A DNA stretch of 64,000 nt from Gammaproteobacteria bacterium (GCA_965230455.1 CBDDKY010000003.1:110948-174947), one strand, 5' to 3'. Shown: positions 4,787 to 45,255, numbered from the stretch's first letter. Notes: generated by a model from the letters alone, not told the origin. Numbers and translations: made by a program.

Positions 4787-4967
4787 ATCCTAAAATCCTC
4801 AGTTGAAATCTACTGCGGCCGCCTAACTCACCGAATCTAAAGGATTTTTCTCAATATTTTTTATTCACCGTATGGGTGATACGCTTTCACAAAAAATATT
4901 GAGAAAAATCCTTTATCTTCAGCAACTAAGTCGGCCTCGCGACGATTTCAACTGAGGATTTTAGGAT
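4787..4967. repeat. MITE-like palindromic element, family A, copy 1 (181 bp)
   Basis: Terminal inverted repeats atcctaaaatcctcagttgaaatc ... gatttcaactgaggattttaggat with a palindromic core (..cctttagattcggtgagttaggcggcc.. type arms). The same element recurs at 33730, 37018, 41158 and 45075. Confidence 0.7.
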
Positions 4968-5094
4968 AATAGTAAAGTAGCCAGAATATAACATGATAAT
5001 AAACAGCTAAGAAGAGTAGTAGTAAAATGCTAACTTCACTAGTTTGCATGGTTTCATGCCTTGTGATGTGCGTGGATGCTATACTCACACGATA

Positions 5095-5340
5095 TGCTAT
5101 ATCGGGACTCGCTATTGTTTCTCCCCGAGAAACGGATAGCTTGCCCTTAAGGCATAATGGATGCATTCAATAGAACTATTGGATGGAAGTTTTCTCCAGT
5201 CCTGGAGAACATGTTTGCTTTTTTGTTTGCCTTTCTAATACTTACCCTCATTAATGCACAACCTACTGCGCAATATGGGGGCTTCATGACTATAGATAAT
5301 GGGGTGGTGGAGCTAAAATGGTTTGACAATACTCTTTTGG
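5095..5340. repeat. ~250-bp noncoding repeat, copy 2 (pairs with 2197..2445), upstream of the ankyrin-like gene and MITE A1
   Basis: See copy 1. Same orientation, so together the two copies form direct repeats bracketing 2551..4967. Confidence 0.6.
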
Positions 5341-5689
5341 ATAGGTTTTATTTGACGTTATTTTCTTTTCTCGAACTCAGTGGATGGTAATTGAACACTA
5401 GTAGTACATGTTTTTATCTCATCTTGGTTTTTTTTCAATCTTTTGCAAACCCTGGCGAGATTTTATCACGCCCTACACTATTTTAAGAGCTTATTGGCGC
5501 TTCCTTCTCACGCTGAAGTTTGTGGAGCATGAAATGAATTGTCAATAAAATATACAGAGTAGGCTCAAACACATAAGCAGAAAGTTACCCTGAAAAATTT
5601 ATCAGCAATTCCCGCTGGCCTTGAATAGTTAAAAATATCAACATGTTACGACCCATTAAGTAATTATTTTTCGCAATAATTTTGCGGGA

Positions 5690-5835
5690 ATAGCTTCCTG
5701 TTATTGATTTCGCCTACGCGGAGCAAGTCCGCGTGGACGGCGATTCAAGGGGAGCTTACGCTTACTCCCCTTGAAAATCCCCAGGCGGTTTGTGAGCAAT
5801 TCCCTGCGGGAATTGCTGAAAATTTATAATAGAGC
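5690..5835. repeat. Small hairpin-rich repeat, family C (inverted relative to copy 25195..25290, with a ~65-bp internal insertion)
   Basis: Shares gcaattcccgcagggaattgctcacaaa and cgaaatcaataaca..attcc.gcaa.attgcgaaaaata with 25195..25290. The extra segment gatttcgcctacgcggagcaagtccgcgtggacggcgattcaaggggagcttacgcttactccccttgaa is itself hairpin-rich and resembles 36640..36700. Confidence 0.5.
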
Positions 5836-5998
5836 TTTCAAAGAGCCTTCTTACTCTGGTAAACTCTCCTTCGGTTGCTAACTAGATAGATAACTATTTA
5901 ATCTTTATTTAATTTCCCAGCCAAATGCTTAAAAGTGACTTTTATCGCTAAAGATTTTTTGGGCACAGTGGTATATAAAATTTTAAGTGAGGTGAGAC

Positions 5999-6304
5999 AT
6001 GGAATATATATATAACGATGTGGTGGAATTTTTTTTTGCTTCAGCTCTGTTTATTAATGCAATGCTTTTTTTACCTCAAGCTTGGAAGGTTTTTAAACAT
6101 AAACGCTCAGGAGAAGTTTCATTAATCACCTTTGGTGGTTTTTTGATCACTCAATTATTAACCGTTATCCATGCCTCGATTAAAAATGATTATGTATTAC
6201 TCGGAGGTTATATTTTAGCCATGTCCTCTTGTGGTTTAGTTGTTGCTCTAGCTTTATATTATCGAATTAAAAATAAATTCTTAACTAAAAAAGCAAGGAT
6301 ATAA
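5999..6304 (+). CDS. Small 3-TM membrane protein, PQ-loop / SemiSWEET-like
   Basis: 101 aa with three predicted TM helices and an LPQ motif in TM1 (FLPQAWKVFKHKRSGEVSLITF), as in SemiSWEET/PQ-loop proteins. Reasonable upstream region. Confidence 0.45.
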   Translation: MEYIYNDVVEFFFASALFINAMLFLPQAWKVFKHKRSGEVSLITFGGFLITQLLTVIHASIKNDYVLLGGYILAMSSCGLVVALALYYRIKNKFLTKKARI

Positions 6305-6307
6305 AAT

Positions 6308-7561
6308 ATGCAAAGCAGAAAAATGTTTATTGACCTTTTGCCTTATAAACCATCGATCATTTTAACATGCAAGCATACTAAAAAAAGAGTCTTGCAGTTA
6401 GCTTATAAGTTATTAGCAGAAGTCATAGAGAGTATAGATGACTTCTACCGCGCTAGAAATTTTTCATGCTTTGACCCACATGTTGGTGAAAACTTATGCC
6501 AAATCAGAGCGTGTCAATTTTTTGCACTACTTCAAGACTATGAGAGTAATCAATTTATTGTTAAACAGTCCTATAGTAAAGAACGCCAACTGTGTAAAGC
6601 AAAGCTTTTAACACTTGAAGAGCTCTCACAGCAAGAAGCGAGTAATAATGAGCCAATAAATATTGTAGATTTTTTGGAAAGCTTTAAGCTAAATATTTCG
6701 CTCTCAGAGACTACTGCTTTTTTAACTATCTCTCATTTTTTGACTAAATTTAGAATTTTTAATGAGCATGAAAATACGGTGATAGACTATTCTTCACTTA
6801 TAGGCGATTGGCAAATTTCAAAGAATTTAGCCCGAAGAATGGTGCATGAATACCAAAAATATATTTCTGAGACTTCTTCTAAGTTTGTGGCAGCTAAACT
6901 GCCTGGGTGTCAGCAGCTTGATATTGATCCAGACATTTTGAGGTTATTAAATTTTCGAGATGATGATGGACGTTATACATCTCCCAACTTTTTAGCAACA
7001 GCAATTTTGTTGGACTATTTGATTAAGTTTAAAGTGAGTATTTTTTTATCTATAAGGAGTGATGCAGGTCATGAAATTATAGGACTTTTATTTGAGGTGA
7101 ACAAAAAATCATCAGGCTATGTTTTGTCTGAGGTAAATGGAAAAAGTAAACATTTGCCTTGTATTGTAATGAGTGCTATAACTAAAACCAGTATCAGAAG
7201 CCAGGTTGATAAAGCTCACTTTAGACAGTATTTACTTAATGTCGGCTTAATTAAAACTATTATGTTGAATATGGCTGGGCACCCCCAATATAGTGGTAAA
7301 AAATTGAGACCTATGGCAAATAACCCTTTTATTCCTCTAATTTCCAGTGGTAATACAAAAATATCAAGCAATGCCATATTGTTAAGCCAACATTTCCAAA
7401 AGTTGAAAACTCTTTCTACAGTAATTGGTTGTAAACAAAATGACTATCGACTGCTATGTATTAGACATATTTACTTTGATAACTTAGGCAACCAACTTAA
7501 TATGCTTAAAGATAATAAGTTTTACTCAGACATACTCAGTGAAATCACTGAAATAGCTTAG
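6308..7561 (+). CDS. Hypothetical protein (417 aa), no recognisable domain
   Basis: Long uninterrupted ORF, co-oriented and tightly spaced between 5999..6304 and the kinase gene at 7593. Confidence 0.5.
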   Translation: MQSRKMFIDLLPYKPSIILTCKHTKKRVLQLAYKLLAEVIESIDDFYRARNFSCFDPHVGENLCQIRACQFFALLQDYESNQFIVKQSYSKERQLCKAKLLTLEELSQQEASNNEPINIVDFLESFKLNISLSETTAFLTISHFLTKFRIFNEHENTVIDYSSLIGDWQISKNLARRMVHEYQKYISETSSKFVAAKLPGCQQLDIDPDILRLLNFRDDDGRYTSPNFLATAILLDYLIKFKVSIFLSIRSDAGHEIIGLLFEVNKKSSGYVLSEVNGKSKHLPCIVMSAITKTSIRSQVDKAHFRQYLLNVGLIKTIMLNMAGHPQYSGKKLRPMANNPFIPLISSGNTKISSNAILLSQHFQKLKTLSTVIGCKQNDYRLLCIRHIYFDNLGNQLNMLKDNKFYSDILSEITEIA

Positions 7562-7592
7562 CAATAATAAAGCCTGATGTCTGATTTTCATA

Positions 7593-9560
7593 ATGTTTAA
7601 ATGGATTTATTCAATGAAAAATTTATCAATTAATGATGCAAATAGTGTGCGCGAGTATTTTGAAAATATTATCGCTCTACTACCTGGGCATATTTTTTGG
7701 AAGGATTTAGAGTGCCGATTTTTAGGTTGTAACGACAAGCAAGCACAGATAGCAGGTCTTTCTTCTAGGCATGAAATTATCGGATTAAATTCTATAGATG
7801 TTATTTCTAAAAACCAACCTAAAGAGCTAAGAAAAAAACAAGCTATGGCAATTGATGCTATTGACATGAAAATCATGCGTAGCGGAATACCTGAAACCAT
7901 AGAAGAACCTTTTGTCACTGAAGAGGGAGAAGAAAGAATTTTCTTATCACAAAAAGTTCCTATAAAAGATAGCGAGGATAAAGTCATTGGGCTGCTAGGA
8001 ATAGCCATTGATATAACTGAACAAAAGAGAATGGAGAGAGAGCTCAGTAGAGCTCGAGACCAAGCTGAATTAGCCAACAAAGCTAAATCAGCTTTTTTAG
8101 CCAATATTAGTCATGATACACGAACACCATTATCTGGCATCATTACTTTGTCAGAAGCTATGATGAAGGATTCTAAGTTACTAACAATAGAGAATATCAT
8201 ACATATTAATAAGTCTAGTCAATCATTGCTTGACATGATGAATAAAGTGTTAGACTTTATTCGTATAGAGTCACCAGATTTTAGGGAGCTACAAAAAGCA
8301 GAGTTATTTTCTATATCACAATTAGTTGATGATGTTTTTTCTCTGTATAGGCCAAGTTTTAATACTAAGAAAATAAAGTTCAAAATAAACATTGCCAAGA
8401 ATATGCCACCTTGCCTTTTCAGTAAACCTTTTTTTATTTATAAGATATTTGTTAATCTTATTGGTAATGCTCTCAAATTCACTGAGAAAGGGTATGTCTC
8501 GCTTGATGTTTGGCTAAAAGGGCGTAAGTTTTGTTTTTCTATAACAGATACGGGGTCCGGAATTCCAGATAAAGAAAAAGCAAAGATTTTTGAATGGTTT
8601 GAAAAATTAAATCCATCTTACAAAAGCACTCTTGATGGGATGGGGCTTGGCTTAGCCTTAGTTAAAACAGCTTTAGAAGACTTAAATGGCAACATTCAAG
8701 TGCTGGATAACAAGGATGGAGGGACTATTTTTTCTGGCGAGATTCCTATTGAAATACCTTCTTCAGTTGATAAGAAAAATACTGATATTCCCCCCATTGG
8801 AAGTAGTAGACTACAACAAAATAATACTTTTAAAGAAATAAAGCTTGAATCAAAAAAGTATATTTTGCTTGTAGAAGATAGTGAAATAGCTGGTATGGCC
8901 GCTAAACTGGTTTTAGAGCAAGTAGGATTTGTTGTGGACTGGGTTAAAACAGGGCAAGATGGCTTAGCTGCTATCTTGGCTGGAAAGTATAATATGTTCA
9001 TATTAGATATAGGCTTACCTGATATGGCTGGTGATGAGGTAATAGTTCAAGCAAGGATAGCTGGTACTAAAGAGCCTGCTTATGCTTTAACAGGGCATGC
9101 TGACATAGATAGGGAGGAGTTAATAGCTAAAGGATTTACCGAGGTTATGGTTAAGCCATTGGATATCAAAAGCTTTTTAGATTTTATAAAGGAAAACGAT
9201 GATGAATTTGAACTAGGGAAAAGTGACATAAAAATAGTTGATTTAAATTTAGGTGAAAATTTTGGTTTTGATAAAAGACAAGCAAAAGAAATATTAGCCA
9301 CCTTTATTGCAGGTTTAGATATTGATGTGCAAGACTTAAAAAAAGCCATTGAAAAAACAGATATAAAAAAATTACAAAATATTTTACATCGTATAAAGGG
9401 TGGCGCTAGTTATGCTTGTGTACCCAAGTTAGATACAGAATTGAAAATAGCACATTCTGCAATAAAAGCGGGTGATGTCCTAAATTTGGAAGAACTATTT
9501 AATCCACTTTTTTTAGCCATTGAGGAGTTAATAGAAGTATTTGAGAAGGGCTCCTTCTGA
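7593..9560 (+). CDS. Hybrid sensor histidine kinase (PAS - HisKA - HATPase - receiver - HPt)
   Basis: H-box ISHDTRTPLSGII. N/G boxes LIGNALKFT and DTGSGIPDKEKAKIFEWF. Receiver ILLVEDSEIAG...FILDIGLPDMAG. C-terminal HPt HRIKGGASYACVPKL. Confidence 0.85.
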   Translation: MFKWIYSMKNLSINDANSVREYFENIIALLPGHIFWKDLECRFLGCNDKQAQIAGLSSRHEIIGLNSIDVISKNQPKELRKKQAMAIDAIDMKIMRSGIPETIEEPFVTEEGEERIFLSQKVPIKDSEDKVIGLLGIAIDITEQKRMERELSRARDQAELANKAKSAFLANISHDTRTPLSGIITLSEAMMKDSKLLTIENIIHINKSSQSLLDMMNKVLDFIRIESPDFRELQKAELFSISQLVDDVFSLYRPSFNTKKIKFKINIAKNMPPCLFSKPFFIYKIFVNLIGNALKFTEKGYVSLDVWLKGRKFCFSITDTGSGIPDKEKAKIFEWFEKLNPSYKSTLDGMGLGLALVKTALEDLNGNIQVLDNKDGGTIFSGEIPIEIPSSVDKKNTDIPPIGSSRLQQNNTFKEIKLESKKYILLVEDSEIAGMAAKLVLEQVGFVVDWVKTGQDGLAAILAGKYNMFILDIGLPDMAGDEVIVQARIAGTKEPAYALTGHADIDREELIAKGFTEVMVKPLDIKSFLDFIKENDDEFELGKSDIKIVDLNLGENFGFDKRQAKEILATFIAGLDIDVQDLKKAIEKTDIKKLQNILHRIKGGASYACVPKLDTELKIAHSAIKAGDVLNLEELFNPLFLAIEELIEVFEKGSF

Positions 9561-9618
9561 TTAAATGTAAAAGCCAAAACTTAATCTGACAATCAGTAGT
9601 TATCAGGCAGGTTGCTTG

Positions 9619-10166
9619 TCAGTTAACTGTTGGATATTTTTCATGCTCACAAAGCGTCGCGCTCTGTGAGTCTTGATTCTTATGCGCGTCATCGGATAGC
9701 GCGATGCTGCCTGCGCCTGTTGTACCACCGCTCGGTGATACAACATTCTCGGCCAGCTCAAATAAAGTATCAAGCTGTTTCTCACGTGCTAACGGTTTAG
9801 CCTCTAAAAAAGTTTGCCAAGGTGTTTTACCATAGCAGTACTTGCCAGAATGCGGGCGAAACTCATTATATTGCTTTAACCAGTTACTCACATCTTGCTG
9901 CAACTCATCCACGCTTTGATAAACCTTTTTCCTAAAAGCAACATCATAAAACTCTTGCTTCATGGTACGATGAAACCGTTCACAAATCCCATTGGTCTGC
10001 GGAGAGCGGGCCTTTGTCTTGCTATGGTCAATATTTTCAATGGCTATAAAAAGCTGATAGGCATGCTCTTGCACTTTACCACAATATTCAGTCCCTCTGT
10101 CGGTTAAAATACGGAGTAAATCAACACCCTGCTCTTGAAACCAAGGAACAACGGTTTCATTCAGCA
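9619..10166 (-). pseudogene. IS481-family transposase, C-terminal integrase-core fragment, truncated by the IS630 insertion at 10167
   Basis: LRILTDRGTEYCG...KARSPQTNGICERFHRTMKQEF is the conserved DDE E-region of IS481-type transposases. The reading frame runs straight into the IS630 left end at 10167. Confidence 0.7.
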
Positions 10167-20156: not shown

Positions 20157-20474
20157 ATGACCACAAAAACTTACACCCAAGAGCAACGCCAAGCCTTACT
20201 GACCGCTCAAGCTGCCAGCGGCCTGTCAAAACCTGCTTTTTGTAAACGGGAAAATATTCGTTACTCTACCTTTAAAAACTGGGGTCGACGCAAGCCGACC
20301 AATAGTAACAAAAAAATATTAACAAGCAACAATAAATTTCAGCCCATCAAACTATCTGCACCCACGCCACCCGCTATGCTGCGGTTACGCAAACCCTGTG
20401 GCTTGCTTATCGAATTACCCTTGGATATTCCTCATCAGCAATTAAAATCTTTATTGACAGCATTAGAAATTTAG
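20157..20474 (+). CDS. tnpA: IS66 family accessory protein TnpA (orf1)
   Basis: 105 aa, first gene of the IS66 triplet. Confidence 0.7.
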   Translation: MTTKTYTQEQRQALLTAQAASGLSKPAFCKRENIRYSTFKNWGRRKPTNSNKKILTSNNKFQPIKLSAPTPPAMLRLRKPCGLLIELPLDIPHQQLKSLLTALEI

Positions 20475-20476
20475 TC

Positions 20477-20830
20477 ATGATAACGTTCAACGACAAACTA
20501 ACTATTATGGTGGCCATGGCACCCATCGACATGCGCTGCTCCATCGATGGCTTAACCTTAAAAATAATTTCAACCTTTGAACAAACACCGCAGTCGCCAA
20601 CGCTATTTTTATTTCATAACAAAAAAGGCGATAAAGTCAAAATGCTACTGTGGCACAAAAATGGTTTTGTGATGCTGTATAAACGGCTAGAGCAAGGACG
20701 CTTTAAGTTTCCTCGGCACCACGACGACATTCTGAATATCAGTCATGCACAACTCTACGGTTTGCTAGCTGGTTTTGATTTCATGCGTATGGCCGATTAT
20801 CCCGAGCTTGACTTTAGTCATTATTGTTAA
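20477..20830 (+). CDS. tnpB: IS66 family TnpB (IS66 Orf2-like)
   Basis: 117 aa. Conserved PIDMRCSIDGL..LFLFHNKKGDKVKMLLWHKNGF..YKRLEQGRF motif family. Confidence 0.8.
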   Translation: MITFNDKLTIMVAMAPIDMRCSIDGLTLKIISTFEQTPQSPTLFLFHNKKGDKVKMLLWHKNGFVMLYKRLEQGRFKFPRHHDDILNISHAQLYGLLAGFDFMRMADYPELDFSHYC

Positions 20831-20872
20831 AAAATAATAGGATTTCATGGGGGTATTTGGTATAATAACCCC

Positions 20873-22453
20873 ATGAAATCAAAGACAAAAAAAGAAAAAA
20901 CAACCAACGCCGCACTCTTGCAGCGCGTTCAATCGCTTGAAGAAAAACTTAAAAAATCTGACGAACAATTAAAAAAAATTGACGACAAATACCAGCGCCT
21001 ACTTGAACATTATAACCTTCTAAAGCATTTTCGCTTTGCCCGTAAAACAGAAAAAAATAGCCAACAGTTAGGACTATTCGATGAAGCAGGGATTAGCTTA
21101 GAAACCGACAACCCGCCTGAAGACAAAAAAGCCGCTGCAACACCCAAACAAAATGCCAAACCCAAAAAACGAGGTAAGCGTAAACCATTACCTACGGATT
21201 TGCCCCGTGAAGATATCATCGTTGATGTCAGTGACGCAGAAAAGAATTGTGATTGCTGTGGCAAACAACGCCCCTGTCTTGGTGAAGAAACCACTGAAAA
21301 GTTAGACATTGAACCCATTAAGATTAAAGTCATTTGCTACCGCCGCCCTAAATATGGCAATTGTTGCGAAGATAAAACAAATGGCCATGAAGGCGTGCTC
21401 ACCGCCAAGTTGCCCAATCTTTTTTTACCTAAATCGATTGCAGCCCCAGGATTGGCCGCACAGATTATCACGTCAAAATTTGAAGACCACCTGCCACTCT
21501 ATCGACAAACCGCCATTTGGAAACGTTACCACGTTGATTTAAGTCGCGCAACGCTTGGTAGGATTGTGATTAATAGCATGGCACACTGTCAGCCTTTGTA
21601 TGAATTGCTCAAAGAAAAAATTCTCAATCAATCCTATACGCAAGTAGATGAAACCCCACTTAAGATACTTAAGAAAAATAAACAAGCTTACATGTGGGTG
21701 TATGCCGCCGGCCCACCTGATAAAAGAACCATCGTTTTTGATTATCAGCCCTCACGTTCGGGCCAACACGCCAAGGATTTCTTGGAAGGCTTCAAGGGCC
21801 ATGTGCAATGTGATGGTTACAGCGGTTATCATTGGCTAGCTAACAGCACCAACATGAGTCGCGGCGGTTGCATGGCGCACGCCCGGCGCAAATTCCATGA
21901 CGTGTTAAAAATCAGCAAAGCCGAAGGACTGGCGCAACAAGCCATGGACATTATTGGCAGGCTGTACGACATTGAAAAAATAGCCAGAGAAAACGCATAC
22001 AGCGAACAACAGCGTTACCAACTACGTCAAGAAAAAGCGCTGCCGATTATTGAAGAATTAAAAACCTTCTTGGACACAAACAAAGACAAAGTACCGCCAC
22101 GTCATAAGCTAGGTGAAGCCTTTACCTACGCACTGAACCAATGGCAATATTTGGTTGCGTATTTAGATAACGGTGCTTATGAAATCGATAACAATATCGT
22201 GGAAAACCTTATTAGACCCTTTGCCATTGGCCGAAAAAACTGGCTATTCCACGGTAGTGACGAAGGCGCCAAAGCCGGCGCCATGTGTTACAGCTTAATT
22301 GCCACCGCCAAAGCCCACGGCCTGGAACCCTTTGCTTATCTTAATTATGTCTTTAACCACATCGCTCAATGCCAGAGCCGTGATGACATTGAAAAACTGC
22401 TGCCACACAATCTAACCACCGACATCATCACCCCAGCGGTCTCTAACAATTAA
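20873..22453 (+). CDS. tnpC: IS66 family transposase TnpC
   Basis: 526 aa with a leucine-zipper N-terminus, a CxxC zinc-ribbon (CDCCGKQ...CYRRPKYGNCC) and a DDE domain. Confidence 0.85.
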   Translation: MKSKTKKEKTTNAALLQRVQSLEEKLKKSDEQLKKIDDKYQRLLEHYNLLKHFRFARKTEKNSQQLGLFDEAGISLETDNPPEDKKAAATPKQNAKPKKRGKRKPLPTDLPREDIIVDVSDAEKNCDCCGKQRPCLGEETTEKLDIEPIKIKVICYRRPKYGNCCEDKTNGHEGVLTAKLPNLFLPKSIAAPGLAAQIITSKFEDHLPLYRQTAIWKRYHVDLSRATLGRIVINSMAHCQPLYELLKEKILNQSYTQVDETPLKILKKNKQAYMWVYAAGPPDKRTIVFDYQPSRSGQHAKDFLEGFKGHVQCDGYSGYHWLANSTNMSRGGCMAHARRKFHDVLKISKAEGLAQQAMDIIGRLYDIEKIARENAYSEQQRYQLRQEKALPIIEELKTFLDTNKDKVPPRHKLGEAFTYALNQWQYLVAYLDNGAYEIDNNIVENLIRPFAIGRKNWLFHGSDEGAKAGAMCYSLIATAKAHGLEPFAYLNYVFNHIAQCQSRDDIEKLLPHNLTTDIITPAVSNN

Positions 22454-25290: not shown

Positions 25291-25475
25291 CTTAAGTAAT
25301 TATCCTAAAATCAGCAGTAAATCGCGTCTTTTTGGTGTAACAGATTGATTTAGATAAGGAAACTAAAAAAGCGGTATACACCTTATTGGTGATGGAGACT
25401 TTTTTTGTTTTCTTAGATGAATCAAGATGTTATCGCCAAAAACGTGATTTAACTGCTGATTTTAGGATTATAACC
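25290..25475. repeat. MITE-like element, family B, complete copy (~185 bp)
   Basis: Termini atcctaaaatcagcagtaaatcgcg ... cgtgatttaactgctgattttaggat. Left half recurs at 40108 and both halves (split) at 52215-52505. Confidence 0.65.
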
Positions 25476-29237: not shown

Positions 29238-30782
<1,545 letters not shown>

Positions 30783-32334: not shown

Positions 32335-32376
32335 TATCGCGGTGGTCTAATAGTTCTAATAATTTTAAGTATTGCT

Positions 32377-33717: not shown

Positions 33718-33729
33718 GATCTGTTGATA

Positions 33730-33845
33730 ATCCTAAAATCCTCAGTTGAAATCGTCGCGAGGCCGACTTAGTTGCTGAAAAAAAATCCTTTAGATTCAGT
33801 GAGTTAGGCGGCCGCAGTAGATTTCAACTGCGGAATTTAGGATAA
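33730..33845. repeat. MITE family A, short variant (copy 2, ~116 bp) with an inverted core
   Basis: atcctaaaatcctcagttgaaatcgtcgcgaggccgacttagttgctgaa...gtgagttaggcggccgcagtagatttcaactgcggaatttaggata. Confidence 0.65.
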
Positions 33846-33925
33846 TCTTAAATTCCACCGTTCAACAACTCAGTCGCTTGCGATCGCGTTGTCGGTTGGA
33901 CAAAAAGATGAATGGTCAATAGACC

Positions 33926-34889: not shown

Positions 34890-34978
34890 GAACTGTTGAC
34901 AAAACACCCCCCCTCGGCGTTTAATACGCTTAAATTTTAACTTATTTAATGACATTCATCCCCGCTGGGAGGCTCAAA

Positions 34979-35173: not shown

Positions 35174-35182
35174 GAACAATCA

Positions 35183-36502
35183 ATGAGCAATGAAACACCC
35201 AGCTTGGCTAAACCAATAACCCAACAAGCCACCTTATTTGAGCGAGCTAAAGCCTTTATTCCAGGTGGGGTTAACTCGCCGGTGAGAGCCTTTGGCGGTG
35301 TCGGCGGAACGCCTGTTTTTTTTCAGCGGGCAGAGGGTGCTTATCTCTTTGATGTAGAAGGAAAATCCTATATTGACTATGTGGGTTCCTGGGGACCCAT
35401 GATATTAGGGCATGCGTACCCTGAAGTCATTCAAGCTGTGCAAAAGACAGCGACTAATAGTTTAAGCTTTGGAGCTCCAACGGCTTTAGAGGTTGATTTA
35501 GCAGAGAAAATTTGCACCTTGATGCCAAATATCGAGCAAGTGCGTATGGTCAACTCTGGTACTGAAGCAACCATGTCAGCCATTCGTCTGGCGAGAGGGT
35601 TTACTGGGCGTTCCAAAATCATTAAATTTGAAGGCTGCTATCATGGCCATTCTGATGCACTGTTGGTCAAAGCAGGCTCTGGAGGGCTTACCTTTGGTGT
35701 GCCTAATTCGGCTGGCGTTCCCTCCAGCACAGTGGAACACACATTAACAGCAACCTTCAATGATTTGAGCAGCGTAGAAGCTTTATTCCAACAAGCGGGG
35801 GCTGATATTGCAGCCATCATCATCGAACCCATTGCGGGGAATATGAATTGCATTCCTGCTGACCCCGATTTTCTCATGGGTCTCAGAACGTTATGTAATG
35901 AAAATGAAAGTTTACTGATTTTTGATGAAGTAATGACTGGCTTTCGTGTGGCTTTAGGTGGTGCTCAAGCTCTCTACGGTATTAAGCCTGACATAACGAC
36001 ATTGGGTAAAGTTATTGGTGGTGGCATGCCGGTGGGTGCCTTTGGTGGACGCAAAGCCATCATGGAGAAACTATCTCCGTTAGGGCCCGTCTATCAAGCG
36101 GGCACGTTGTCTGGAAACCCTGTGGCGATGGCAGCGGGGTTAGCCACCTTAAACACTATTAGTCAACCAGGTTTTTTTGAAACAATAACAAAGCAATGCA
36201 AACAATTGACCCTTGGATTATCCCAAATAGCTAAAGAAAAAGGTATTCCCTTTTGCACTAATCAAGTGGGCGGTATGTTTGGCTTTTTCTTCTCGGATGA
36301 AGCTCCCATCAGCCAATTTGCACAGGTAGAACGCTGTGACGGGAAGCGCTTTCGGCAGTTTTTCCATGGCATGCTAGAACAAGGCGTCTACCTCGCACCT
36401 TCAGCTTTTGAAGCCGGATTTATCTCCAATGCACATAGCGATGAGATTATCAATAAGACCTTAGAAGCGGCTGCTGTTGTTTTTGATTCATTAATAAATT
36501 AG
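35183..36502 (+). CDS. hemL: Glutamate-1-semialdehyde 2,1-aminomutase
   Basis: 439 aa class III aminotransferase with hallmark [13 protein letters not shown] and a PLP lysine in [10 protein letters not shown]. Confidence 0.95.
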
Positions 36503-36619
36503 GGCGTGCCATCAAATCAATCAATTGTTCATCGTTAACCTGAGTCCGACATAAGAACGGCTAAAACCTGCGATAAATCCAGGGGAACGGTGTTCAACAA
36601 CTCGGCCGTTCGCTCCCGA

Positions 36620-36890
36620 GATTGTCTCCTGGTTTGATTTCGCCTACGCGGGTTTCCCGCGTAGGCTCCCAAAGGGGAAAATTGCATTTTTCCCCTGCCT
36701 GTGCCCCCTTGGGTACCTGTGCCCCCTTGGGTATGGAAACCCCATCGCCTTTGCCTCGGGGGCTAGCCCCCGAGATTTCTCACTTTTAACCTAAATTCCG
36801 CTGTTGAAATCTACTGCGGAATTTAGGTTAAAAGCTCAAAAAAATACTCGCATTCGCGGTGCTAGTACTGCGTTTTTTTGAGCTTTTGCC
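36620..36890. repeat. Composite hairpin-rich intergenic repeats: family C-like segment, 42-bp mini-palindrome made of two family A termini, and a long A/T-flanked hairpin
   Basis: tgatttcgcctacgcgggtttcccgcgtaggc...aaggggaaaattgcatttttcccctg; aacctaaattccgctgttgaaatctactgcggaatttaggtt; aaaagctcaaaaaaatactcgcattcgcggtgctagtactgcgtttttttgagctttt. Confidence 0.55.
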
Positions 36891-37017
36891 TTGTCCCCCT
36901 GGATTTCTCTGGGTTTTACCACCTTCTTATGTCGAGCCCAGGTTAGTTACCCCAATAGAATGGCAGTAAGTATACCCAACAACGGGAAAAATGAAAGGTA
37001 CACCTTGATCCTAAAAT

Positions 37018-37186
37018 CCTCAGTTGAAATCTACTGCGGCCGCCTAACTCACCGAATCTAAAGGATTTTTCTCAATATTTTTTATTCACCGTATGGGTGA
37101 TACGCTTTCACAAAAAATATTGAGAAAAATCCTTTATCTTCAGCAACTAAGTCGGCCTCGCGACGATTTCAACTGAGGATTTTAGG
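37018..37186. repeat. MITE family A, copy 3
   Basis: Near-identical to copy 1 (gatcctaaaatcctcagttgaaatctactgcggccgcc...gatttcaactgaggattttagg). Confidence 0.7.
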
Positions 37187-37314
37187 TTGATGAATGTACT
37201 TGTGCATTCAGCAGGCGTACCTTCACCACACGGAATGATCGAATGATCCAGCACGCACGGTCAGCAATTCAAGATAAATTGCCACCCGCGGCCACAAACA
37301 GACTGTTGGATAGG

Positions 37315-37551
37315 TTATTTAAACTTTGTGTTCTCAACAAACTCAACGTACATACCACATCTTCCCGTAACGGCATTATAAGCTCTGGGATCGTACTTTC
37401 TAAGCTTTAATTTGCCGTTGGCGTAACGGCCACTGGCGGCAAGATTCGCTTTGCAACGGCGTGTTACTTTAAAGTAGCCTGTCGGTTTACCACTTTTCGT
37501 TTTACCTGTGGAATTAAGGCGGATGATGTCACTATTGCGCTTCTTAGCCAT
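37315..37551 (-). CDS. rpmG: 50S ribosomal protein L33, long form
   Basis: MAKK..IRLNSTGKT..GYFKVT...KLKLRKYDP parallels L33 (MAKGIREKIKLVS..GHFYTTT..KLELRKFDP) with a ~20-aa internal extension. Immediately downstream of rpmB, as in many bacteria. Confidence 0.65.
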   Translation of the reverse strand: MAKKRNSDIIRLNSTGKTKSGKPTGYFKVTRRCKANLAASGRYANGKLKLRKYDPRAYNAVTGRCGMYVEFVENTKFK

Positions 37552-37561
37552 GGTCTACCCC

Positions 37562-37807
37562 TTATTTAGCCTTTTTTTTCTCTTTTCGAAGCGCTGCCAT
37601 CGCCAAGGCTGCTTCAATACCTAGTTTATCAATAATGCGCATGGCTTTGGCGCTAACACGCAATTTAATAAAACGCTTTTGTGCTTCTAACCAAAAACGG
37701 TGCTCATGCAAATTAGGAACGAAGCGACGCTTGGTTTTATTGTTGGCGTGGGATACGTTATTACCCGTTATCACACGTTTGCCTGTTATTTGGCACTCTC
37801 GAGACAT
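37562..37807 (-). CDS. rpmB: 50S ribosomal protein L28
   Basis: [53 protein letters not shown] is near-collinear with L28. Confidence 0.9.
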
Positions 37808-37924
37808 GGTTTAACTCCAAACTGTATTTAAATTGTTCACACGGGCAGAGACTCTAATCGCCTTTATACCGCTATCTCATCATGTAGCCAGACTTTATAT
37901 CAAAAATTGGGGCATAATGCAATC

Positions 37925-38599
37925 TTATAGCATCCTCCGCTGCGCAAAAGAAGAGCATGCTTCGGCTCCCACAATGATATGGTCCAATACCTCCACATCA
38001 ATGGCCCGTAATGCCTGCTTGAGATACTGGGTCGTTGATTTATCCATCTCGCTAGGCTCGCTACTTCCACCAGGGTGATTATGGGCCAAAATAACCGATG
38101 CCGCATTGAAAAATAAGGCTTTTTTGATAACTTCGCGGGGATGAATAGCTGTCTGCTGTAAGGTGCCTCTAAACAAAATTTGAAAATCAATCAGTCGATG
38201 CTGTGAATTGAGGAATAACAGTCCAAATACCTCATAGGCAAGCGGCCGCAATTGACTGATTAAAAAATGCTCTACCTCCCGCGCACTTTGGCAGCTAATG
38301 CCTTGCTCTAGACCTTGCTTTAAGTGGCGGCGCTGGATTTCGAGGATGGCTTGCCATTGTATGTATTTTGTTTCTCCTAACCCTTTTATTGCACAAAAGC
38401 GTGACTCATCGGCCGAAAAAATGCCCGACAGTCCCCCACAATGGGCGATGAGTTCCCTCGCTAAATCAATGGCACTTTTACCTCTAACACCAGACCCCAA
38501 AAAAATTGCCAATAGCTCAATATCTGTGAGGTTGTGAGCCCCAAAGCGCCTTAATTTTTCCCGTGGTCTTTCTGTTGCAGGCCAATTTGTTATCGTCAT
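37925..38599 (-). CDS. radC: RadC-like JAB/MPN domain protein (UPF0758)
   Basis: N-terminal HhH (RPREKL..GAHNLTDIELLAIFLGSG) and JAMM motif ILAHNHPGGSSEPSEMD. Confidence 0.85.
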   Translation of the reverse strand: MTITNWPATERPREKLRRFGAHNLTDIELLAIFLGSGVRGKSAIDLARELIAHCGGLSGIFSADESRFCAIKGLGETKYIQWQAILEIQRRHLKQGLEQGISCQSAREVEHFLISQLRPLAYEVFGLLFLNSQHRLIDFQILFRGTLQQTAIHPREVIKKALFFNAASVILAHNHPGGSSEPSEMDKSTTQYLKQALRAIDVEVLDHIIVGAEACSSFAQRRML

Positions 38600-38665
38600 A
38601 TTTTTGTTTTATGATGAAAGCAGCAGCATACATTAAATTCTATAATACATTTTTTAAAAATTCAA

Positions 38666-39121
38666 ATGAAAACCATCCACGTTAAACAATTAGACCCTCG
38701 TATTGGTCATGAAATACCTCTCCCACAATACGCCACTGAAGGCTCAGCGGGCCTCGACCTGCGGGCCTGTTTAGATGAACCACTGCTACTAGCACCCAAA
38801 GAGACAGAACTTATTCCTACAGGCCTTGCCATTCATATTGATGATCCTGGGCTCGCCGCGGTTATTTTGCCTCGTTCTGGCCTAGGGCATAAACACGGTC
38901 TTGTTTTGGGAAATTTGGTAGGATTAATTGATTCTGATTATCAAGGACCACTGATGATCTCTGCCTGGAACCGCAGCAACACCGCCTTTACTATCGAACC
39001 TGGCGTTCGTCTCGCACAGCTTGTCTTTGTACCCATTATTGCTGTGCAACTAGAACAGGTAAATGAATTTACAACCACGCGGCGCGGTGAGGGAGGCTTT
39101 GGTTCCTCAGGATTGACATAA
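38666..39121 (+). CDS. dut: dUTP diphosphatase
   Basis: 151 aa. [16 protein letters not shown] and IDSDYQG motifs of trimeric dUTPase. Confidence 0.9.
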
Positions 39122-39125
39122 CCCT

Positions 39126-40100
39126 ATGTCATGCGTCAACCTTTTTGCCATTGCCTCCAGGCTGTTATTAGGTTTGATCCTCAATACGCTACCCATAACA
39201 GCCTTTGCAACCTTCAGCCTCAAAGGTCGACTCGATGCTGCTCCTGCCTCGCAACAACCCCCATCAGGGCCTGTCATCCATATCAGCAATGAACCCACGC
39301 CGCCTCTTGCGCCCATTATAAAGGTTACACCCAAAAGCTATCCTCTCGGCCCGGCTCATTCAGCCAGCAACATCATTAAAGTCGTCAAAGACAGCGCTTA
39401 TCCCATTAGCGTACATCGCGGTGCTTGGCATAACAATGTCATTCGGTCTGAACCGGGCAACGCACCACAAAAAAAACCACCTCCCCTTGGCCCACCTTTG
39501 CGTCTCACGGCCCAACAAGGTGTGCTAATGACTCATTTACTCAAACAAACCAAAAGGCTGCGGCCTCGAGTCCTCGCCTTGGCCTTGACCGCTTACCAAA
39601 AAGCACGCCAACACGGCTTAGATAAAAAAGAAATTTTAACCATTGTTGATTTTTCAAAACCTTCTTCTAAAAAGCGTCTCTGGGTTTTAGATTTAAAACA
39701 TCAAAAATTACTGTTTGAACAATGGGTGGCCCATGGTTATGCCAGCGGCCGACAAAACTATGCCTTACGCTTTTCTAACCGTATTAATAGTCATGAATCT
39801 AGCATTGGCCTTTATCGCACCGGGGGATCTTATGTGGGAAAACTTGGCTACTCCATGCGTTTGTATGGTTTAGAAAAAGGCTTTAATAATAATGCTTATG
39901 TTCGGGATATTGTTTTTCATGGCTCAAATTACGTAACCCCCAAATTTCTCGCTTATCATGGGCGCATCGGTCATACGTGGGGGTGCTTCGGATTAAGCCC
40001 TCACTTTATTAAGCCCATCGTAAATACCATTCGGCATGATACGCTGGTTTTTGCTTACTTTCCTGAAAAAAGCTGGCTTACGCAGTCGCATTACCTATAA
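39126..40100 (+). CDS. Secreted L,D-transpeptidase (YkuD) domain protein; EnhA-like possibility
   Basis: Signal peptide, Pro-rich linker, C-terminal HGS..//..IGHTWGCFGL resembling the YkuD catalytic His/Gly-Cys motif. Confidence 0.5.
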   Translation: MSCVNLFAIASRLLLGLILNTLPITAFATFSLKGRLDAAPASQQPPSGPVIHISNEPTPPLAPIIKVTPKSYPLGPAHSASNIIKVVKDSAYPISVHRGAWHNNVIRSEPGNAPQKKPPPLGPPLRLTAQQGVLMTHLLKQTKRLRPRVLALALTAYQKARQHGLDKKEILTIVDFSKPSSKKRLWVLDLKHQKLLFEQWVAHGYASGRQNYALRFSNRINSHESSIGLYRTGGSYVGKLGYSMRLYGLEKGFNNNAYVRDIVFHGSNYVTPKFLAYHGRIGHTWGCFGLSPHFIKPIVNTIRHDTLVFAYFPEKSWLTQSHYL

Positions 40101-40107
40101 CTGTCTT

Positions 40108-40320
40108 TAACCTAAAATCAGCAGTAAATCGCGCTTTTTTGGTCTAACAGATTGATTTAGATCAGGAATCCTCTGTTTAGGGCCTGTTGGCAGCTCATTT
40201 TTGCAAGCGACAAGCGAAATTTGAAAGGACGCAAATCTGCACCCGCTTTATTCAAATTGCAGCGTAAAAATGACTGCTCAACAGCCCCTAACCTAAAACC
40301 AGCAATAAATCACTTTTTAG
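40108..40320. repeat. Degenerate MITE family B remnant (left half plus divergent terminus)
   Basis: aacctaaaatcagcagtaaatcgcgcttttttggtctaacagattgatttaga at 40108, and cctaaaaccagcaataaatcac at ~40290. Confidence 0.45.
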
Positions 40321-40322
40321 GT

Positions 40323-41042
40323 TTACGCTTCTTGTTTCGTGGGGCCAATGACAATTTCACGCACACAAACACGTTGCGGCATGCTGTAGGCAAAGTACAT
40401 ACTCTCAGCAATATCCTCCGGCAATAAAGGCTCGATGGTTGCTTTCCAGTCTTTATAACCAGACTTAATGTCTTCAGAGGTTGTATGGCCTAACAATTCT
40501 GTTTCCACAACCCCAGGCGCAATAGTCACGAGACGCACGTTACTGCTGGCCACTTCTTCACGAATATTTTCTGTGAGTGCATGAACGGCAAACTTTGTTG
40601 CGCAATAAGCTGCATGGCTGGGAAAAGTCTTACGACCGGCAATGGAACTTACATTGATAATCGTACCACTCTGACGCGCCATCATGCCCTGTAAAACAGT
40701 TTGAATACCATTCAACACGCCCATCACGTTGACATTAAGCATGCTTTGCCACTCTTTGGGGCTTTGCTCATGAATCTGTCCTAACAACATAACGCCAGCA
40801 TTGTTCACCAATACATCGGTGGGACCATACAATGCTTCTGCCTCTGCAATGGCTTTTTGTATGGCGTCAATATCGGTCACGTCAACTTTTGCACACAGCG
40901 TATTGGGTAGATCCAACGCTGTTAAACGTTCCACACGACGCGCCAATAATAATAGGGGGTGGCCTTTGCCGGAAAAAAGCCGTGCGACTGCTTCGCCAAT
41001 GCCTGAACTTGCACCTGTAATTACAATAAGTGGTTTATCCAT
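40323..41042 (-). CDS. SDR family NAD(P)-dependent oxidoreductase
   Basis: TGASSGIG cofactor motif, NNAG, catalytic Y..K (YCATKFAV). Confidence 0.85.
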   Translation of the reverse strand: MDKPLIVITGASSGIGEAVARLFSGKGHPLLLLARRVERLTALDLPNTLCAKVDVTDIDAIQKAIAEAEALYGPTDVLVNNAGVMLLGQIHEQSPKEWQSMLNVNVMGVLNGIQTVLQGMMARQSGTIINVSSIAGRKTFPSHAAYCATKFAVHALTENIREEVASSNVRLVTIAPGVVETELLGHTTSEDIKSGYKDWKATIEPLLPEDIAESMYFAYSMPQRVCVREIVIGPTKQEA

Positions 41043-41157
41043 AACTGTTCTCTTTTTTTAGTTGAAATCTGTTGGAAACCCAACGGCTGAAAAAGCATAC
41101 TACATTTTGTAGGGCAACTCAAAAATTGAATATGCTCAGCAAAACTGAGCATATTCA

Positions 41158-41338
41158 ACCTAAATTCCGCAGTTGAAATCGTCGCGAGGCCGACTAAGCC
41201 GCTGAAGATAAAGGATTTTTTTTCATCTTTTTTGTGAAAGCGTATCACCCATACGGTGAATAAAAAAGATGGAAAAAAATCCTTTAGATTCGGTGAGTTA
41301 GGCGGCCTCGCGACGATTTCAACTGCGGAATTTAGGTT
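41158..41338. repeat. MITE family A, copy 4 (ccgcag variant termini)
   Basis: aacctaaattccgcagttgaaatcgtcgcgaggccgac...cgacgatttcaactgcggaatttaggtt. Confidence 0.7.
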
Positions 41339-41377
41339 CAACCAGGAGAACACTTCCTGCCGGAAGTCTAGACGTGG

Positions 41378-43663
41378 TTATTCAATCTCGCAAGCACCGC
41401 CGGCGCAAGCTAATTCCTTTTTCACTTCCGTTTCATCACGTTTTTCATAGGCAGCAATTTTACCGTAATCTACATGCTCAAAACGCTCTTTGAGCGCTAA
41501 GTAACGTGCTTCATCAATTTCCTCATAGGGAGGCAACTGATAAACATGCTGCTGGCGAGGAAGGAAAGATAAACCACCAATAATATCCCAATGGCTGTAA
41601 AGCCAATTGGCAACGGCTATCCATTCATTTTCACCCACAGAAATAGTCACGGAAGGATTATGCTCGGTGAAATTTTCTTTAACCACTTTCCAGTGATTCA
41701 ATTGGTCTAAAGCACTTAAGTCGTCTTTATAAATAGCGCCTTCCGGTGCTTTCACCGGAAAATCGATAACAAATGTCGTTGCATCTTCTTCTGTTTGCCC
41801 CACTTCTGGATGGTAAGGAACCTGTTGGTCTTTTAACATCTTAAATAGCGCATCCGTGGCTGAAATACGAATGCGACGAATATGATAAGGTGAATGACGT
41901 GGATGCATACCGGAAGCACAGTCTACCGTTTGTGACACTGTACCCGATGGCTTCACACACGTTGTACAAGTAGAAGCATTAATACCAAAACGCTTACTAT
42001 AAAATTCATTCGCCTCGATGGTGGCTTTTCGTAAGCGCTGCAACACGTCAGGCTGTCTTGCGGCTTCACAATCCCATTGGCCTGTGACAGAAACACCCAG
42101 CAAACGTTCTGCTTCACAGTTTTTTTGCCAAGCTTCAGACAAATAAGGAAACTTCGTCAGTGACGACTGGTAGGTTCCAAGTAAGGTTGCTACACGAATT
42201 TTGCGTAACAATGTGGCTTCGTCATCGTCAGCGCGCGCAACCACTTCTGATAAATTACAAAATTGCTTAGATTGCAAAATAATTTCCGCACAAGGATTGG
42301 TGCCAATAATACCGGTAATGCGTCCACCTTGCATAAGTCCTGCCTCTTTTAAAACGCTCAAGCGACGTTCAGGCAAGGTTTTGACTAAGCTGCCACGGTT
42401 AAAAATACCACGCTCACCAGAGCCACCTTTCATTAAGGATAACCATTCATCCAGAAAAACGGTATTGCTGGGCTTTTCTTCATACACCGCCGAGTTATTG
42501 GCCATACAACGCTGTGGTTCTGTATAGTAGAATTGGCCACTTTTAGCGTCACGCATGGCGTAATCGTCTAAGTCGGAAAGCGAAATCATCGCACTACGAC
42601 GCACACCACCGGATACAACCACCTCACCAATTTTACATAAAATATCATGGGCGTTGAGGTTAGTTAAACGGCGTCCTTGGCGAGACAAAATCACAGAGCG
42701 CGAGAACTCTAATAACGAACGTAAAGGATCAGGACCTGAGCTTTTCCCACCCATGGTTTTTAAGCGCGCGCCCGCTGGACGAAGTTGGCTGTAATCAAAC
42801 TCAATGTCGTCACCATTAAACCACGTTTCTAGACCTAAAAGTAACGCATCACACCAGCCTTCTTTACTGTCATCCACTACATGGGTCGGTAACTTTTTAC
42901 CGCTTTGGATTTTAATTTGTGGGAGTGCTTGAATGTTTTGGCTTTCCACTGAAAAACCCACACCCGAACCGCACATAGAGACATACATGACTTCCGCAAA
43001 ATCACGCAATGCTGTGGGCGCAATAAAAGAACAATTATAGGCGCAGACACTAGACGCACGCGCTGCCGGACCTGCAAATTGCAAAAGACGCATAGAAGGC
43101 ATAACTTCTTGGTTTAAAATAGCTTGGCGTACTTCAGCATATTCTTCGGCGGATAATTTATCGCCTAAGTTTTCTTGCATAAAATCCACATAGCGCTGCA
43201 CAGTCTCTATCCAGGTTTCACGACGGCCTTCGCTTTCAATCCAACGCGCGTAAGTGCGCAAATAAACAAACTCATTCAATTCATTACGAAAATACTGTTT
43301 ACTTTCTTCGGCAAGTTTTTTCACATGTTCTGGCACGTGCATTTCTTTTGCGCGTCGTTCTGCCTGTTTTTGACGATATAAAATATAGGCTTTTGCCGTC
43401 TCGGCAAAATTACGTTGAATGAGCTCTTTTTCTACAGCGTCCTGTACCCCTTCTACATTCGGTGTAAAATTACGATGGCTGGCTTTAATGGTCAATAAAT
43501 CATCCTGGATACAATAAGCAATATTTTCGGCATCTTTACGAGAACCTTCTCCCGTAGCCGCCATGGCATTAAAGATTGCATCAACAATGCGCGTTACATC
43601 GAAGTTAACTAAAGCACCGTCACGTTTATGAATTTCTACGAGGGGTTGAGGTTGTTCAGACAT
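41378..43663 (-). CDS. nrdJ: Adenosylcobalamin-dependent ribonucleotide reductase (class II, NrdJ-type) with N-terminal ATP-cone
   Basis: 761 aa. ATP-cone (VIKRDGALVNFDVTRI-type). Active-site TNPCAEIIL characteristic of class II RNR. C-terminal Cys pair CAGGACEIE. Confidence 0.8.
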   Translation of the reverse strand: MSEQPQPLVEIHKRDGALVNFDVTRIVDAIFNAMAATGEGSRKDAENIAYCIQDDLLTIKASHRNFTPNVEGVQDAVEKELIQRNFAETAKAYILYRQKQAERRAKEMHVPEHVKKLAEESKQYFRNELNEFVYLRTYARWIESEGRRETWIETVQRYVDFMQENLGDKLSAEEYAEVRQAILNQEVMPSMRLLQFAGPAARASSVCAYNCSFIAPTALRDFAEVMYVSMCGSGVGFSVESQNIQALPQIKIQSGKKLPTHVVDDSKEGWCDALLLGLETWFNGDDIEFDYSQLRPAGARLKTMGGKSSGPDPLRSLLEFSRSVILSRQGRRLTNLNAHDILCKIGEVVVSGGVRRSAMISLSDLDDYAMRDAKSGQFYYTEPQRCMANNSAVYEEKPSNTVFLDEWLSLMKGGSGERGIFNRGSLVKTLPERRLSVLKEAGLMQGGRITGIIGTNPCAEIILQSKQFCNLSEVVARADDDEATLLRKIRVATLLGTYQSSLTKFPYLSEAWQKNCEAERLLGVSVTGQWDCEAARQPDVLQRLRKATIEANEFYSKRFGINASTCTTCVKPSGTVSQTVDCASGMHPRHSPYHIRRIRISATDALFKMLKDQQVPYHPEVGQTEEDATTFVIDFPVKAPEGAIYKDDLSALDQLNHWKVVKENFTEHNPSVTISVGENEWIAVANWLYSHWDIIGGLSFLPRQQHVYQLPPYEEIDEARYLALKERFEHVDYGKIAAYEKRDETEVKKELACAGGACEIE

Positions 43664-43704
43664 TAGCGTTCCCTTATTAATTAGCTAAAAAGTGCGTTGT
43701 TGCT

Positions 43705-43757
43705 AAATACAATATCTGGTATTTCTCTTACTGTCAAGACACTATATGTGGTATTTT
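43705..43757. promoter_or_regulatory. Two NrdR-box-like repeats spaced ~32 bp upstream of nrdJ
   Basis: acaatatctggtattt (43709-43724) and cactatatgtggtattt (43740-43756), about three helical turns apart in the nrdJ-fba divergent promoter region. Confidence 0.4.
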
Positions 43758-43877
43758 TTAGTATAGCACACCTCAATTTGACCCTTGACAAAAACACTGA
43801 AAATGTTATGAAAACAACCATGGCCTAGCAAGGCTATCTCCTGTTATAATCAGTCCTGAATTTGCCCCAATGACTAT

Positions 43878-44954
43878 ATGGAGAAAACCATGGCTCTTAT
43901 TTCTATGCGCCAATTGCTTGATCACGCAGCAGAACACAACTACGGTGTTCCCGCCTTTAATGTGAATAATCTTGAACAAATGCAGGCCATTATGGAAGCG
44001 GCTCACGCCACAGACAGCCCCGTCATTGTACAAGCATCAGCCGGTGCACGTACCTATGCCGGCCCTGAATTTTTGCGGCATTTGATTTTGGCTGCCACAG
44101 AAGCTTATCCCCATATTCCTGTCTGTATGCATCAAGATCACGGCGCATCGCCTGCCATTTGTCAACGCTCTATTCAGTTAGGCTTTTCTTCCGTCATGAT
44201 GGATGGCTCACTCAAAGAAGACATGAAAACGCCAAGTGATTACAATTATAACGTCGATGTCACACGCCGCACTGTGGAAATGGCTCACGCCTGTGGGGTC
44301 TCTGTGGAAGGCGAACTGGGCTGCTTAGGTTCTTTGGAAACCGGTAAAGCTGGCGAGGAAGACGGTTCCGGTGCTGAAGGTGTCTTAAGCCATGAACAGT
44401 TATTAACTGACCCCGATGAAGCGGCTAACTTTGTCCGTGATACGCAAGTAGATGCCCTGGCCATTGCCATTGGTACAAGTCACGGTGCTTACAAATTCAC
44501 CCGCCCACCTACGGGAGATGTATTAGCCATTGACCGTATCAAAGCCATTCATGCACGCATTCCCGATACTCATTTGGTGATGCATGGCTCTTCAGCGGTT
44601 CCTCAAGACTGGTTGGCCATTATTAATGAATACGGTGGTGAAATGGGTGAAACCTATGGCGTTCCCGTAGAAGAATGCCAAGAAGGCATCAAGCATGGTG
44701 TTAGAAAAATCAACATTGATACGGATTTGCGCATGGCATCCACTGGCGCTATTCGTCGTTATTTGGCTAAAAACCCAACAGTCTTTGACCCACGCAAATA
44801 TTTAGACGCAGCCAAAAGCGCTATGTCTGATATCTGTAAAAATCGTTATGAAGCCTTTGGCACAGCAGGACAAGCCCATAAAATAAAAGTCATTAGCTTA
44901 GACAACATGCACACCAGATACACATCAGGTGAACTAGACCCACAAGTGCGCTAG
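43878..44954 (+). CDS. fba: Class II fructose-bisphosphate aldolase
   Basis: 358 aa. Class II FBA motifs ([29 protein letters not shown]). Confidence 0.9.
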
Positions 44955-44974
44955 CAAGTAATCGGGCATCAAAG

Positions 44975-45005
44975 AGGAGAGTAGGCCAAGCCCCTCTCCT
45001 TTTTG
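44975..45005 (+). terminator. Rho-independent terminator after fba
   Basis: aaagaggagagtaggccaagcccctctcctttttgatg forms a stem followed by a T-tract. Confidence 0.55.
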
Positions 45006-45074
45006 ATGATCAAAATTCAACCTAAAACTCAAACGCTACGGGTATACATTGCGCAATATGGGGGTCACTTCATG

Positions 45075-45255
45075 ATCCTAAATTCCGCAGTTGAAATCTA
45101 CTGCGGCCGCCTAACTCACCGAATCTAAAGGATTTTTTTCCATCTTTTTTATTCACCGTATGGGTGATACGCTTTCACAAAAAAGATGGAAAAAAATCCT
45201 TTAGATTCGGTGAGTTAGTCAGCCTCGCGACGATTTCAACTGCGGAATTTAGGAT
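45075..45255. repeat. MITE family A, copy 5
   Basis: atcctaaattccgcagttgaaatctactgcggccgcc...gatttcaactgcggaatttaggat. Confidence 0.7.

Follow-up and report, generated by a model that had tools for sequence, protein, structure and literature searches.

Short palindromic repeats of a gammaproteobacterial genome are very probably miniature elements with ends of the IS1380 transposase type

We analysed a 64,000-nt stretch of DNA, one strand, from a Gammaproteobacteria bacterium (GCA_965230455.1 CBDDKY010000003.1:110948-174947; hereafter the window, whose numbering is used for all window positions). A search with the RpoD of the organism gives a 100%-identical protein (P0126) on a 1.52-Mb contig and a next-best match at 64% identity. 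The subject is a short palindromic repeat, here called family A. All six copies share the terminus CCTAAA(A/T)TCC(T/G)CAGTTGAAATC, and the terminus pattern has 12 matches in the window versus 0.01 expected from shuffles. The repeat family that a preliminary description had noticed is thus real, and it comprises four full copies, one internally deleted copy and one mini form. A profile hidden Markov model built from the four full copies found no further copy in the window. The copies are as follows.

4789 to 4965, plus strand: full copy of subtype A1 (terminus CCTAAAATCCTCAGTTGAAATC), 177 bp, target duplication ATAAT at 4784-4788 and 4966-4970
33732 to 33841, minus strand: internally deleted copy, 110 bp, duplication ATAAT on both sides
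36790 to 36827, unstranded: mini form, 38 bp, flanked by TTTAA and TTAAA
37010 to 37186, plus strand: full copy of subtype A1, 177 bp, duplication TTGAT
41159 to 41336, minus strand: full copy of subtype A2 (terminus CCTAAATTCCGCAGTTGAAATC), 178 bp, duplication TTCAA
45077 to 45253, plus strand: full copy of subtype A2, 177 bp, duplication ATGAT

Alignment of the copies together with their flanks places the true ends at CC...GG. Each element is a long imperfect palindrome, and a 22-bp terminal inverted repeat lies at both ends of every full copy. The sites and the core repeat given in the preliminary description hold with these boundaries, and some details change: the copy placed at 37018 starts at 37010, the mini palindrome measures 38 bp and not 42, and the leading '(a)at' counted as part of the terminus lies outside the element, the 'at' being target duplication in three copies and falling outside the palindrome in the other two. 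Copies 4789 and 37010, separated by 32 kb, are identical at 177/177 positions, which points to recent movement; the remaining pairs show 89-93% identity. No open reading frame (ORF) lies wholly inside any element (sizes 38-178 bp), and the longest ones overlapping them, of 56 aa (36891-37061) and 110 aa (41021-41353), both start or end outside.

The inner arms of family A occur either as TACTGCGGCCGCC... or as GTCGCGAGGCCGAC...; within copies 4789 and 37010 the two arms are different, and in copies 41159 and 45077 they are partly homogenised between these forms. Most simply, the long internal palindrome would be a by-product of two similar arms growing more alike within each element. The short copy at 33732, which has one A1 and one A2 terminus, had been thought to carry inverted inner arms. 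Read as its reverse complement, it keeps the order of the full copies and lacks a central stretch of about 68 bp bounded by two T runs; judged from this alignment, orientation and a central deletion are sufficient and no arm inversion is needed. The mini form consists of the left terminus and the last 15 nt of the right terminus joined via the heptamer ACTGCGG, which is present in both the inner arm and the terminus, an arrangement that fits a microhomology deletion. Its flanks form an imperfect duplication. Comparable mini forms of 60-69 bp are found in loci that we fetched from other genomes (L018 and L040), and the one in L040 has a perfect duplication. In addition, a decayed terminus-like sequence, CTTAAATTCCACCGT, lies at 33847-33861, 5 nt beyond the short copy and with 2 mismatches to the 15-nt pattern; it may be the relic of an older insertion.

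All family A copies are located between genes, as had been described for four of them. Copy 4789 lies 51 nt upstream of the start of a minus-strand gene (2551-4737), copy 33732 lies 14 nt past the stop of an M23 peptidase gene, copy 37010 is found between the convergent hemL and rpmG genes, and copy 45077 separates fba from a histidine kinase gene convergent with it. Copy 41159, previously placed before nrdJ, is 3' of that gene; it is also 5' of the next one, for a short-chain dehydrogenase (40323-41042), and the two genes share the minus strand. A 93-nt direct repeat, 82% identical between 2212-2304 and 5106-5198, flanks the 728-aa gene at 2551-4737 together with copy 4789.

Perfect 5-bp direct repeats are found at five out of five non-mini copies (ATAAT, ATAAT, TTGAT, TTCAA and ATGAT), and three of these duplications contain no TA. 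Pooling the window with all fetched loci gives 29 elements that have this terminus and perfect 5-bp duplications, and the target consensus is WTNAW, with T at position 2 in 29/29 and A at position 4 in 29/29. A parse as a 3-bp duplication next to a longer inverted repeat was rejected because copies 37010 and 41159 break the extended palindrome. Since family A elements are small at under about 600 bp, non-coding, multicopy, bounded by terminal inverted repeats and flanked by target duplications, and since two copies are identical, the evidence supports the view that they are non-autonomous miniature inverted-repeat transposable elements, or MITEs, as had been suggested.

Transposition can be read directly from a filled and an empty site outside the window. 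Two copies of a 1729-bp element (L016:2184-4167 and L057:1418-3146) are identical at 1722/1729 positions, and one of them carries a nested 250-bp MITE with the exact 22-mer terminus and a duplicated TTTAT. The empty site reads ...CCAACCTTTTATTTGACTTCC... and the filled site reads ...CCAACCTTTTAT, the 250-bp MITE and then TTTATTTGACTTCC.... The pair demonstrates the insertion, with 5-bp duplication, of a MITE bearing the exact 22-mer. The contig names of the two sites suggest a single assembly of a betaproteobacterial metagenome-assembled genome (MAG), and this assembly also has intact IS1380-type elements.

The same terminus is found well beyond the window. A scan of reference genomes with the 22-mer returned at least 24 loci, and among the matches listed the terminus bounds elements of 60, 162, 250 and 511 bp in MAGs of Endozoicomonadaceae, a betaproteobacterium, Nitrosomonas, Coxiellaceae and Fibrobacterota. 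The interiors of these small elements are mutually unrelated, and most of the elements have perfect 5-bp duplications. A metagenome scan with the terminus revealed more families, some with the subterminal TACTGC and GTCRCGA of family A. A scan of the same kind with the centre motif of family A gave 0 matches, and the interior of family A appears to be private to its source lineage within the scanned metagenome collection. The terminus had 0 matches in a scan of viral contigs, and a BLAST search of plasmids with a 36-nt terminus gave a single irrelevant 19-nt match. With one or two matches per locus and no arrays, the terminus was rejected as a repeat of the CRISPR (clustered regularly interspaced short palindromic repeats) type.

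Some of the loci carry further features of their own. At L002:1-380 an ORF of at least 104 aa begins 46 nt after the exact 22-mer; it has no recognisable similarity, runs off the end of a 122-kb contig, and may be part of a larger element using the same ends. In the Endozoicomonadaceae MAG, one MITE (L019:~3942-6941) is interrupted by an IS66-type element, and another (L007:5604-5801) has an internal 9-bp unit, GGGTGACTT, expanded to five copies.

Transposase genes of the IS1380 type, or remnants of them, are located inside ends that resemble the MITE terminus. The ends of the 511-bp element from Fibrobacterota (L023:5986-6496) agree with the terminus at 21/22 and 18/22 positions and enclose a remnant ORF with similarity to the IS1380 model NF033539 (E = 1.4e-4); over residues 303-438 of the full-length transposase P0001 the remnant shows 34% identity (E = 2e-17). 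Three transposase fragments related to this remnant (L054, L055 and L056) lie within or abut ends with a 16-19/22 match. One of them matches PF13701, one weakly PF01609 and one no Pfam family, the PF13701 fragment (L054) ending in a related terminus. Homology search with the L023 remnant found fragments only, and no intact parent with the exact terminus.

Intact elements are provided by the betaproteobacterial 1729-bp sequence. Removal of the nested 250-bp MITE and one ATAAA (on the plus strand of L016) restores a 1729-bp insertion sequence with ends CCTATTTTCCTCAGTTGAACC and CCTAAATTCCTCTTTT, a TTGAA duplication and a 543-aa ORF. The intact elements (L016 minus the nested MITE, L025, L031 and L057) have ends CCTATTTTCCTCAGTTGAAC and CCTAAATTCCTC and a 543-aa transposase, and the copies sampled beyond L016 have the same ends and the duplications ATGAA, TTTAT and ATTAT. 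The 543-aa protein of L016 matches NF033539 with E = 1e-43, its 99%-identical homologue P0001 scores 60.9 bits against PF13701 (cut-off 34.7), and the L016 protein finds annotated ISEcp1 transposases by tblastn at E of about 1e-10, the ISEcp1 transposase itself scoring 188 bits against PF13701. One homologue of the 1729-bp element carries the NCBI name of a Nitrosomonas sp. Nm33 transposase. The clade of the 543-aa transposase is large (7591 proteins at E <= 1e-10 among 8000 candidates scored), and on a Polaromonas plasmid lies a 53%-identical element with ends CCTATTTTCGGCAGTTAGC and CCTAGAAACGGCAGTTAGC and a TTAAA duplication. A viral scan with the L016 transposase found no relative.

We consider it very probable that family A elements are non-autonomous MITEs whose 22-bp ends are recognised by a DDE transposase of the IS1380 family (PF13701), the family of ISEcp1. 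An IS1380-type transposase encoded elsewhere in this gammaproteobacterial genome would bind the CCTAAA(A/T)TCC(T/G)CAGTTGAAATC ends and insert the elements at WTNAW targets, and the 5-bp duplications would arise because the enzyme makes a 5-bp staggered cut at insertion. Mobilisation would take place in trans, and we infer that the matching transposase is present and active in this genome. Several observations weigh against this assignment. No full-length element with the exact 22-mer at both ends was found, the nearest intact ones matching at 14-17/22 positions; tblastn detects no IS1380-type gene in the window (no match at E <= 1); the 543-aa clade scores 149 bits against NF033539, below the NCBIfam curated IS1380 cut-off of 180; and the assignment does not account for a 12-nt identity between the terminus and the left end of the IS630 elements resident in the window, unlikely by naive chance, which we treat as a coincidence.

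These IS630 elements had been proposed to mobilise family A, and a MITE derived from them serves for comparison:

10169 to 11287, plus strand: resident IS630-family element, 1119 bp, 342-aa DDE_3 transposase, TA flanks, rejected as the driver of family A
11290 to 12408 and 53874 to 54992: further IS630 copies
54995 to 55207, unstranded: IS630-derived MITE, 213 bp, both ends TAGTCCCCGCAGTTGAAA, both flanks TA, an internal control

The preliminary description held that the resident IS630 transposase probably mobilises family A in trans, and a mechanism of this kind would have the enzyme recognise the core CCGCAGTTGAAA. This core is indeed common to the A2 terminus and the IS630 left end (TAGTCCCCGCAGTTGAAACC), a 12-nt identity that becomes a 15/22 match when the flanking TA is counted; furthermore, both IS630 ends carry CAGT(A)TGAAA, and the window has no fewer than three IS630 copies. 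However, the core is found at full length in the left end only, 2 nt out of register relative to the element end, and the right end (read inward, TAGTCAGCACAGTATGAAAT) matches at only 7-9/22 positions. Aligned from the first base, the family A end and the IS630 ends agree at 4/22 and 7/22 positions, and in the outer 8 nt, where cleavage occurs, at 0-2/8. IS630/Tc1 elements duplicate TA. All IS630 copies of the window have TA on both sides, as does the IS630-derived MITE, whose two termini each reproduce the IS630 left end in full and which lies directly against the IS630 copy at 53874-54992. Family A instead has 5-bp duplications, and TA is missing from three of these. The TA duplication had been named beforehand as a test of IS630 mobilisation and is seen at none of the five non-mini copies, and because the insertion sites lack it the proposal fails on its own terms. 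In distant phyla, moreover, the 22-mer terminus encloses remnants of IS1380-type transposases. Taken together, mobilisation by IS630 is very improbable. IS630/Tc1-derived MITEs such as 54995-55207 are like family A in being small, palindromic, non-coding and multicopy and in having the internal CAGTTGAAA motif; they differ in their TA duplications and TAGTCC ends, family A having CCTAAA ends. The IS630 left end contains TTGAAA and, 16 nt downstream of it, TAAAAT, and one possibility is that the shared core acts there as a promoter -35 element. Very tentatively, the CAGTTGAAA core that the MITE terminus shares with the IS630 ends may be owed to a host factor or promoter element in common and not to chance.

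Two other explanations concern the present state and the role of the repeats. Family A copies could be fossils, moved in the past by an IS1380-type enzyme, with no functional partner of theirs left in this genome. The lack of a partner gene in the window, the existence of a deleted copy and a mini form, and the difference between arms within copies 4789 and 37010 would agree with this; the 177/177 identity of two copies 32 kb apart and the fact that all five duplications are still perfect instead suggest recent movement, and we regard the fossil explanation as unlikely. Alternatively, the repeats could be primarily structured elements selected by the host, such as terminators, RNA-stability hairpins or sequences resembling the repetitive extragenic palindromic (REP) and enterobacterial repetitive intergenic consensus (ERIC) elements, and not transposons. 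The two copies folded as RNA do give the long hairpins anticipated earlier, with very stable structures of −81.3 kcal/mol (z = −14.65) for copy 4789 and −108.8 kcal/mol (z = −19.76) for copy 45077, and four of the five non-mini copies are directly 3' of a gene. Against this, the hairpins have no U tract, a simple terminator scan placed none on family A elements, no Rfam family matches them, and a canonical terminator-like hairpin at 36855-36872 belongs to hemL itself. The perfect target duplications and the filled and empty sites indicate transposition, and the interiors are entirely different in other genomes with the same terminus. A primary host function is therefore extremely improbable, and an effect of the hairpins on transcripts is possible as a secondary, exapted one at most. 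MITEs with ends recognised by an IS1380-family transposase are the explanation that we retain.

The terminus itself reads like a chimera in which the 12 outermost nt from the right end of the 1729-bp element are joined to CAGTTGAA of its left end. Very tentatively, and with more doubt than belief, we suggest that the invariant 22-bp terminus marks a MITE superfamily present in at least two phyla (Gamma- and Betaproteobacteria, Fibrobacterota), which would have arisen many times with unrelated interiors; the chimera-like end would be an optimised 'super-substrate' parasitising IS1380-type transposases, with no autonomous element having the terminus at both ends.

A sister family of MITEs, family B, is also present in the window. 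Its interior is unlike that of family A and its outer terminus is common to both (CCTAAAATC..CAGT); on this likeness family B is probably a substrate of the same transposase family.

25304 to 25466, unstranded: family B MITE, outer terminus CCTAAAATCAGCAGT, 5-bp duplication ATTAT
40111 to 40322, unstranded: degenerate family B copy, left terminus intact and right end decayed, flanked by TTTAA and TTTAC
52223 to 52502, unstranded: longer family B MITE, 5-bp duplication TTTAA

Other repeats and mobile elements of the window include an IS66-family element at 20157-22453, in which a 526-aa ORF matching DDE_Tnp_IS66 comes after two small upstream ORFs. The IS630 copies in 10169-12408 are in tandem with only a shared TA between them, and at two 342-aa ORFs on the minus strand (17312-18340 and 18381-19409) the resident IS630 end is not present. 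Three tandem 624-bp units at 50214-52088, 88-93% identical, contain one 134-aa ORF each, and just upstream of them is a 375-aa ORF (49321-50448) without a Pfam match. On the minus strand, Rfam detects group II intron domains at 57641-57716 and 60373-60490, about 2.8 kb apart, which indicates a group II intron, probably with its ORF between the domains.

In annotations, the appropriate label for these repeats is IS1380-type MITE with a WTNAW target, and not IS630 derivative. Of interest are how widely the 22-bp end is conserved across phyla and how sharp the WTNAW target is. ISEcp1 is a main mobiliser of blaCTX-M genes, and a large natural set of miniature substrates that combine a fixed 22-bp end with a sharp target consensus could be of use in defining what IS1380 transposases recognise. 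In the literature searched we found no description of IS1380-derived MITEs, which is not proof that none exist.

Target duplications of 4-5 bp are typical of the IS1380 family, and the Tn3 family duplicates 5 bp. In the Tn3 family the ends measure about 38 bp and begin with GGGG (PMC7864471), and a Tn3-derived inverted-repeat miniature element (TIME) was rejected as the identity of family A, whose ends start with CCTAAA. TIMEs are like family A in being non-autonomous miniature elements (PMC4133298). ISEcp1 and the IS1380 family (DDE transposase, PF13701 DDE_Tnp_1_4) share with family A ends that start with CC and duplications of 5 bp, ISEcp1 being flanked by 5-bp direct repeats (PMC7864471). 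In plasmid NZ_CP093550.1 the two ends of ISEcp1 read CCTAGATTCTACGT and CCTAAATTCCACGT. Its right end agrees with the family A2 terminus throughout the outer 10 nt (CCTAAATTCC, 10/10), and past position 10 the sequences diverge. ISEcp1 is 1656 bp long, whereas family A is 177 bp and has no transposase; the single ISEcp1 duplication read, TCATA, falls outside WTNAW (PMC7864471), and the IS1380 family, including ISEcp1, is tolerant in its right-end recognition (PMC9330008). The nearest intact relatives belong to the 543-aa clade, which is only about 23% identical to the ISEcp1 transposase. Among them, the 1729-bp betaproteobacterial element is known from other genomes and not from the window organism. 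Although neither of its ends alone equals the MITE terminus (14-17/22), the two ends jointly cover it, and the 5-bp duplications of this element fit WTNAW.

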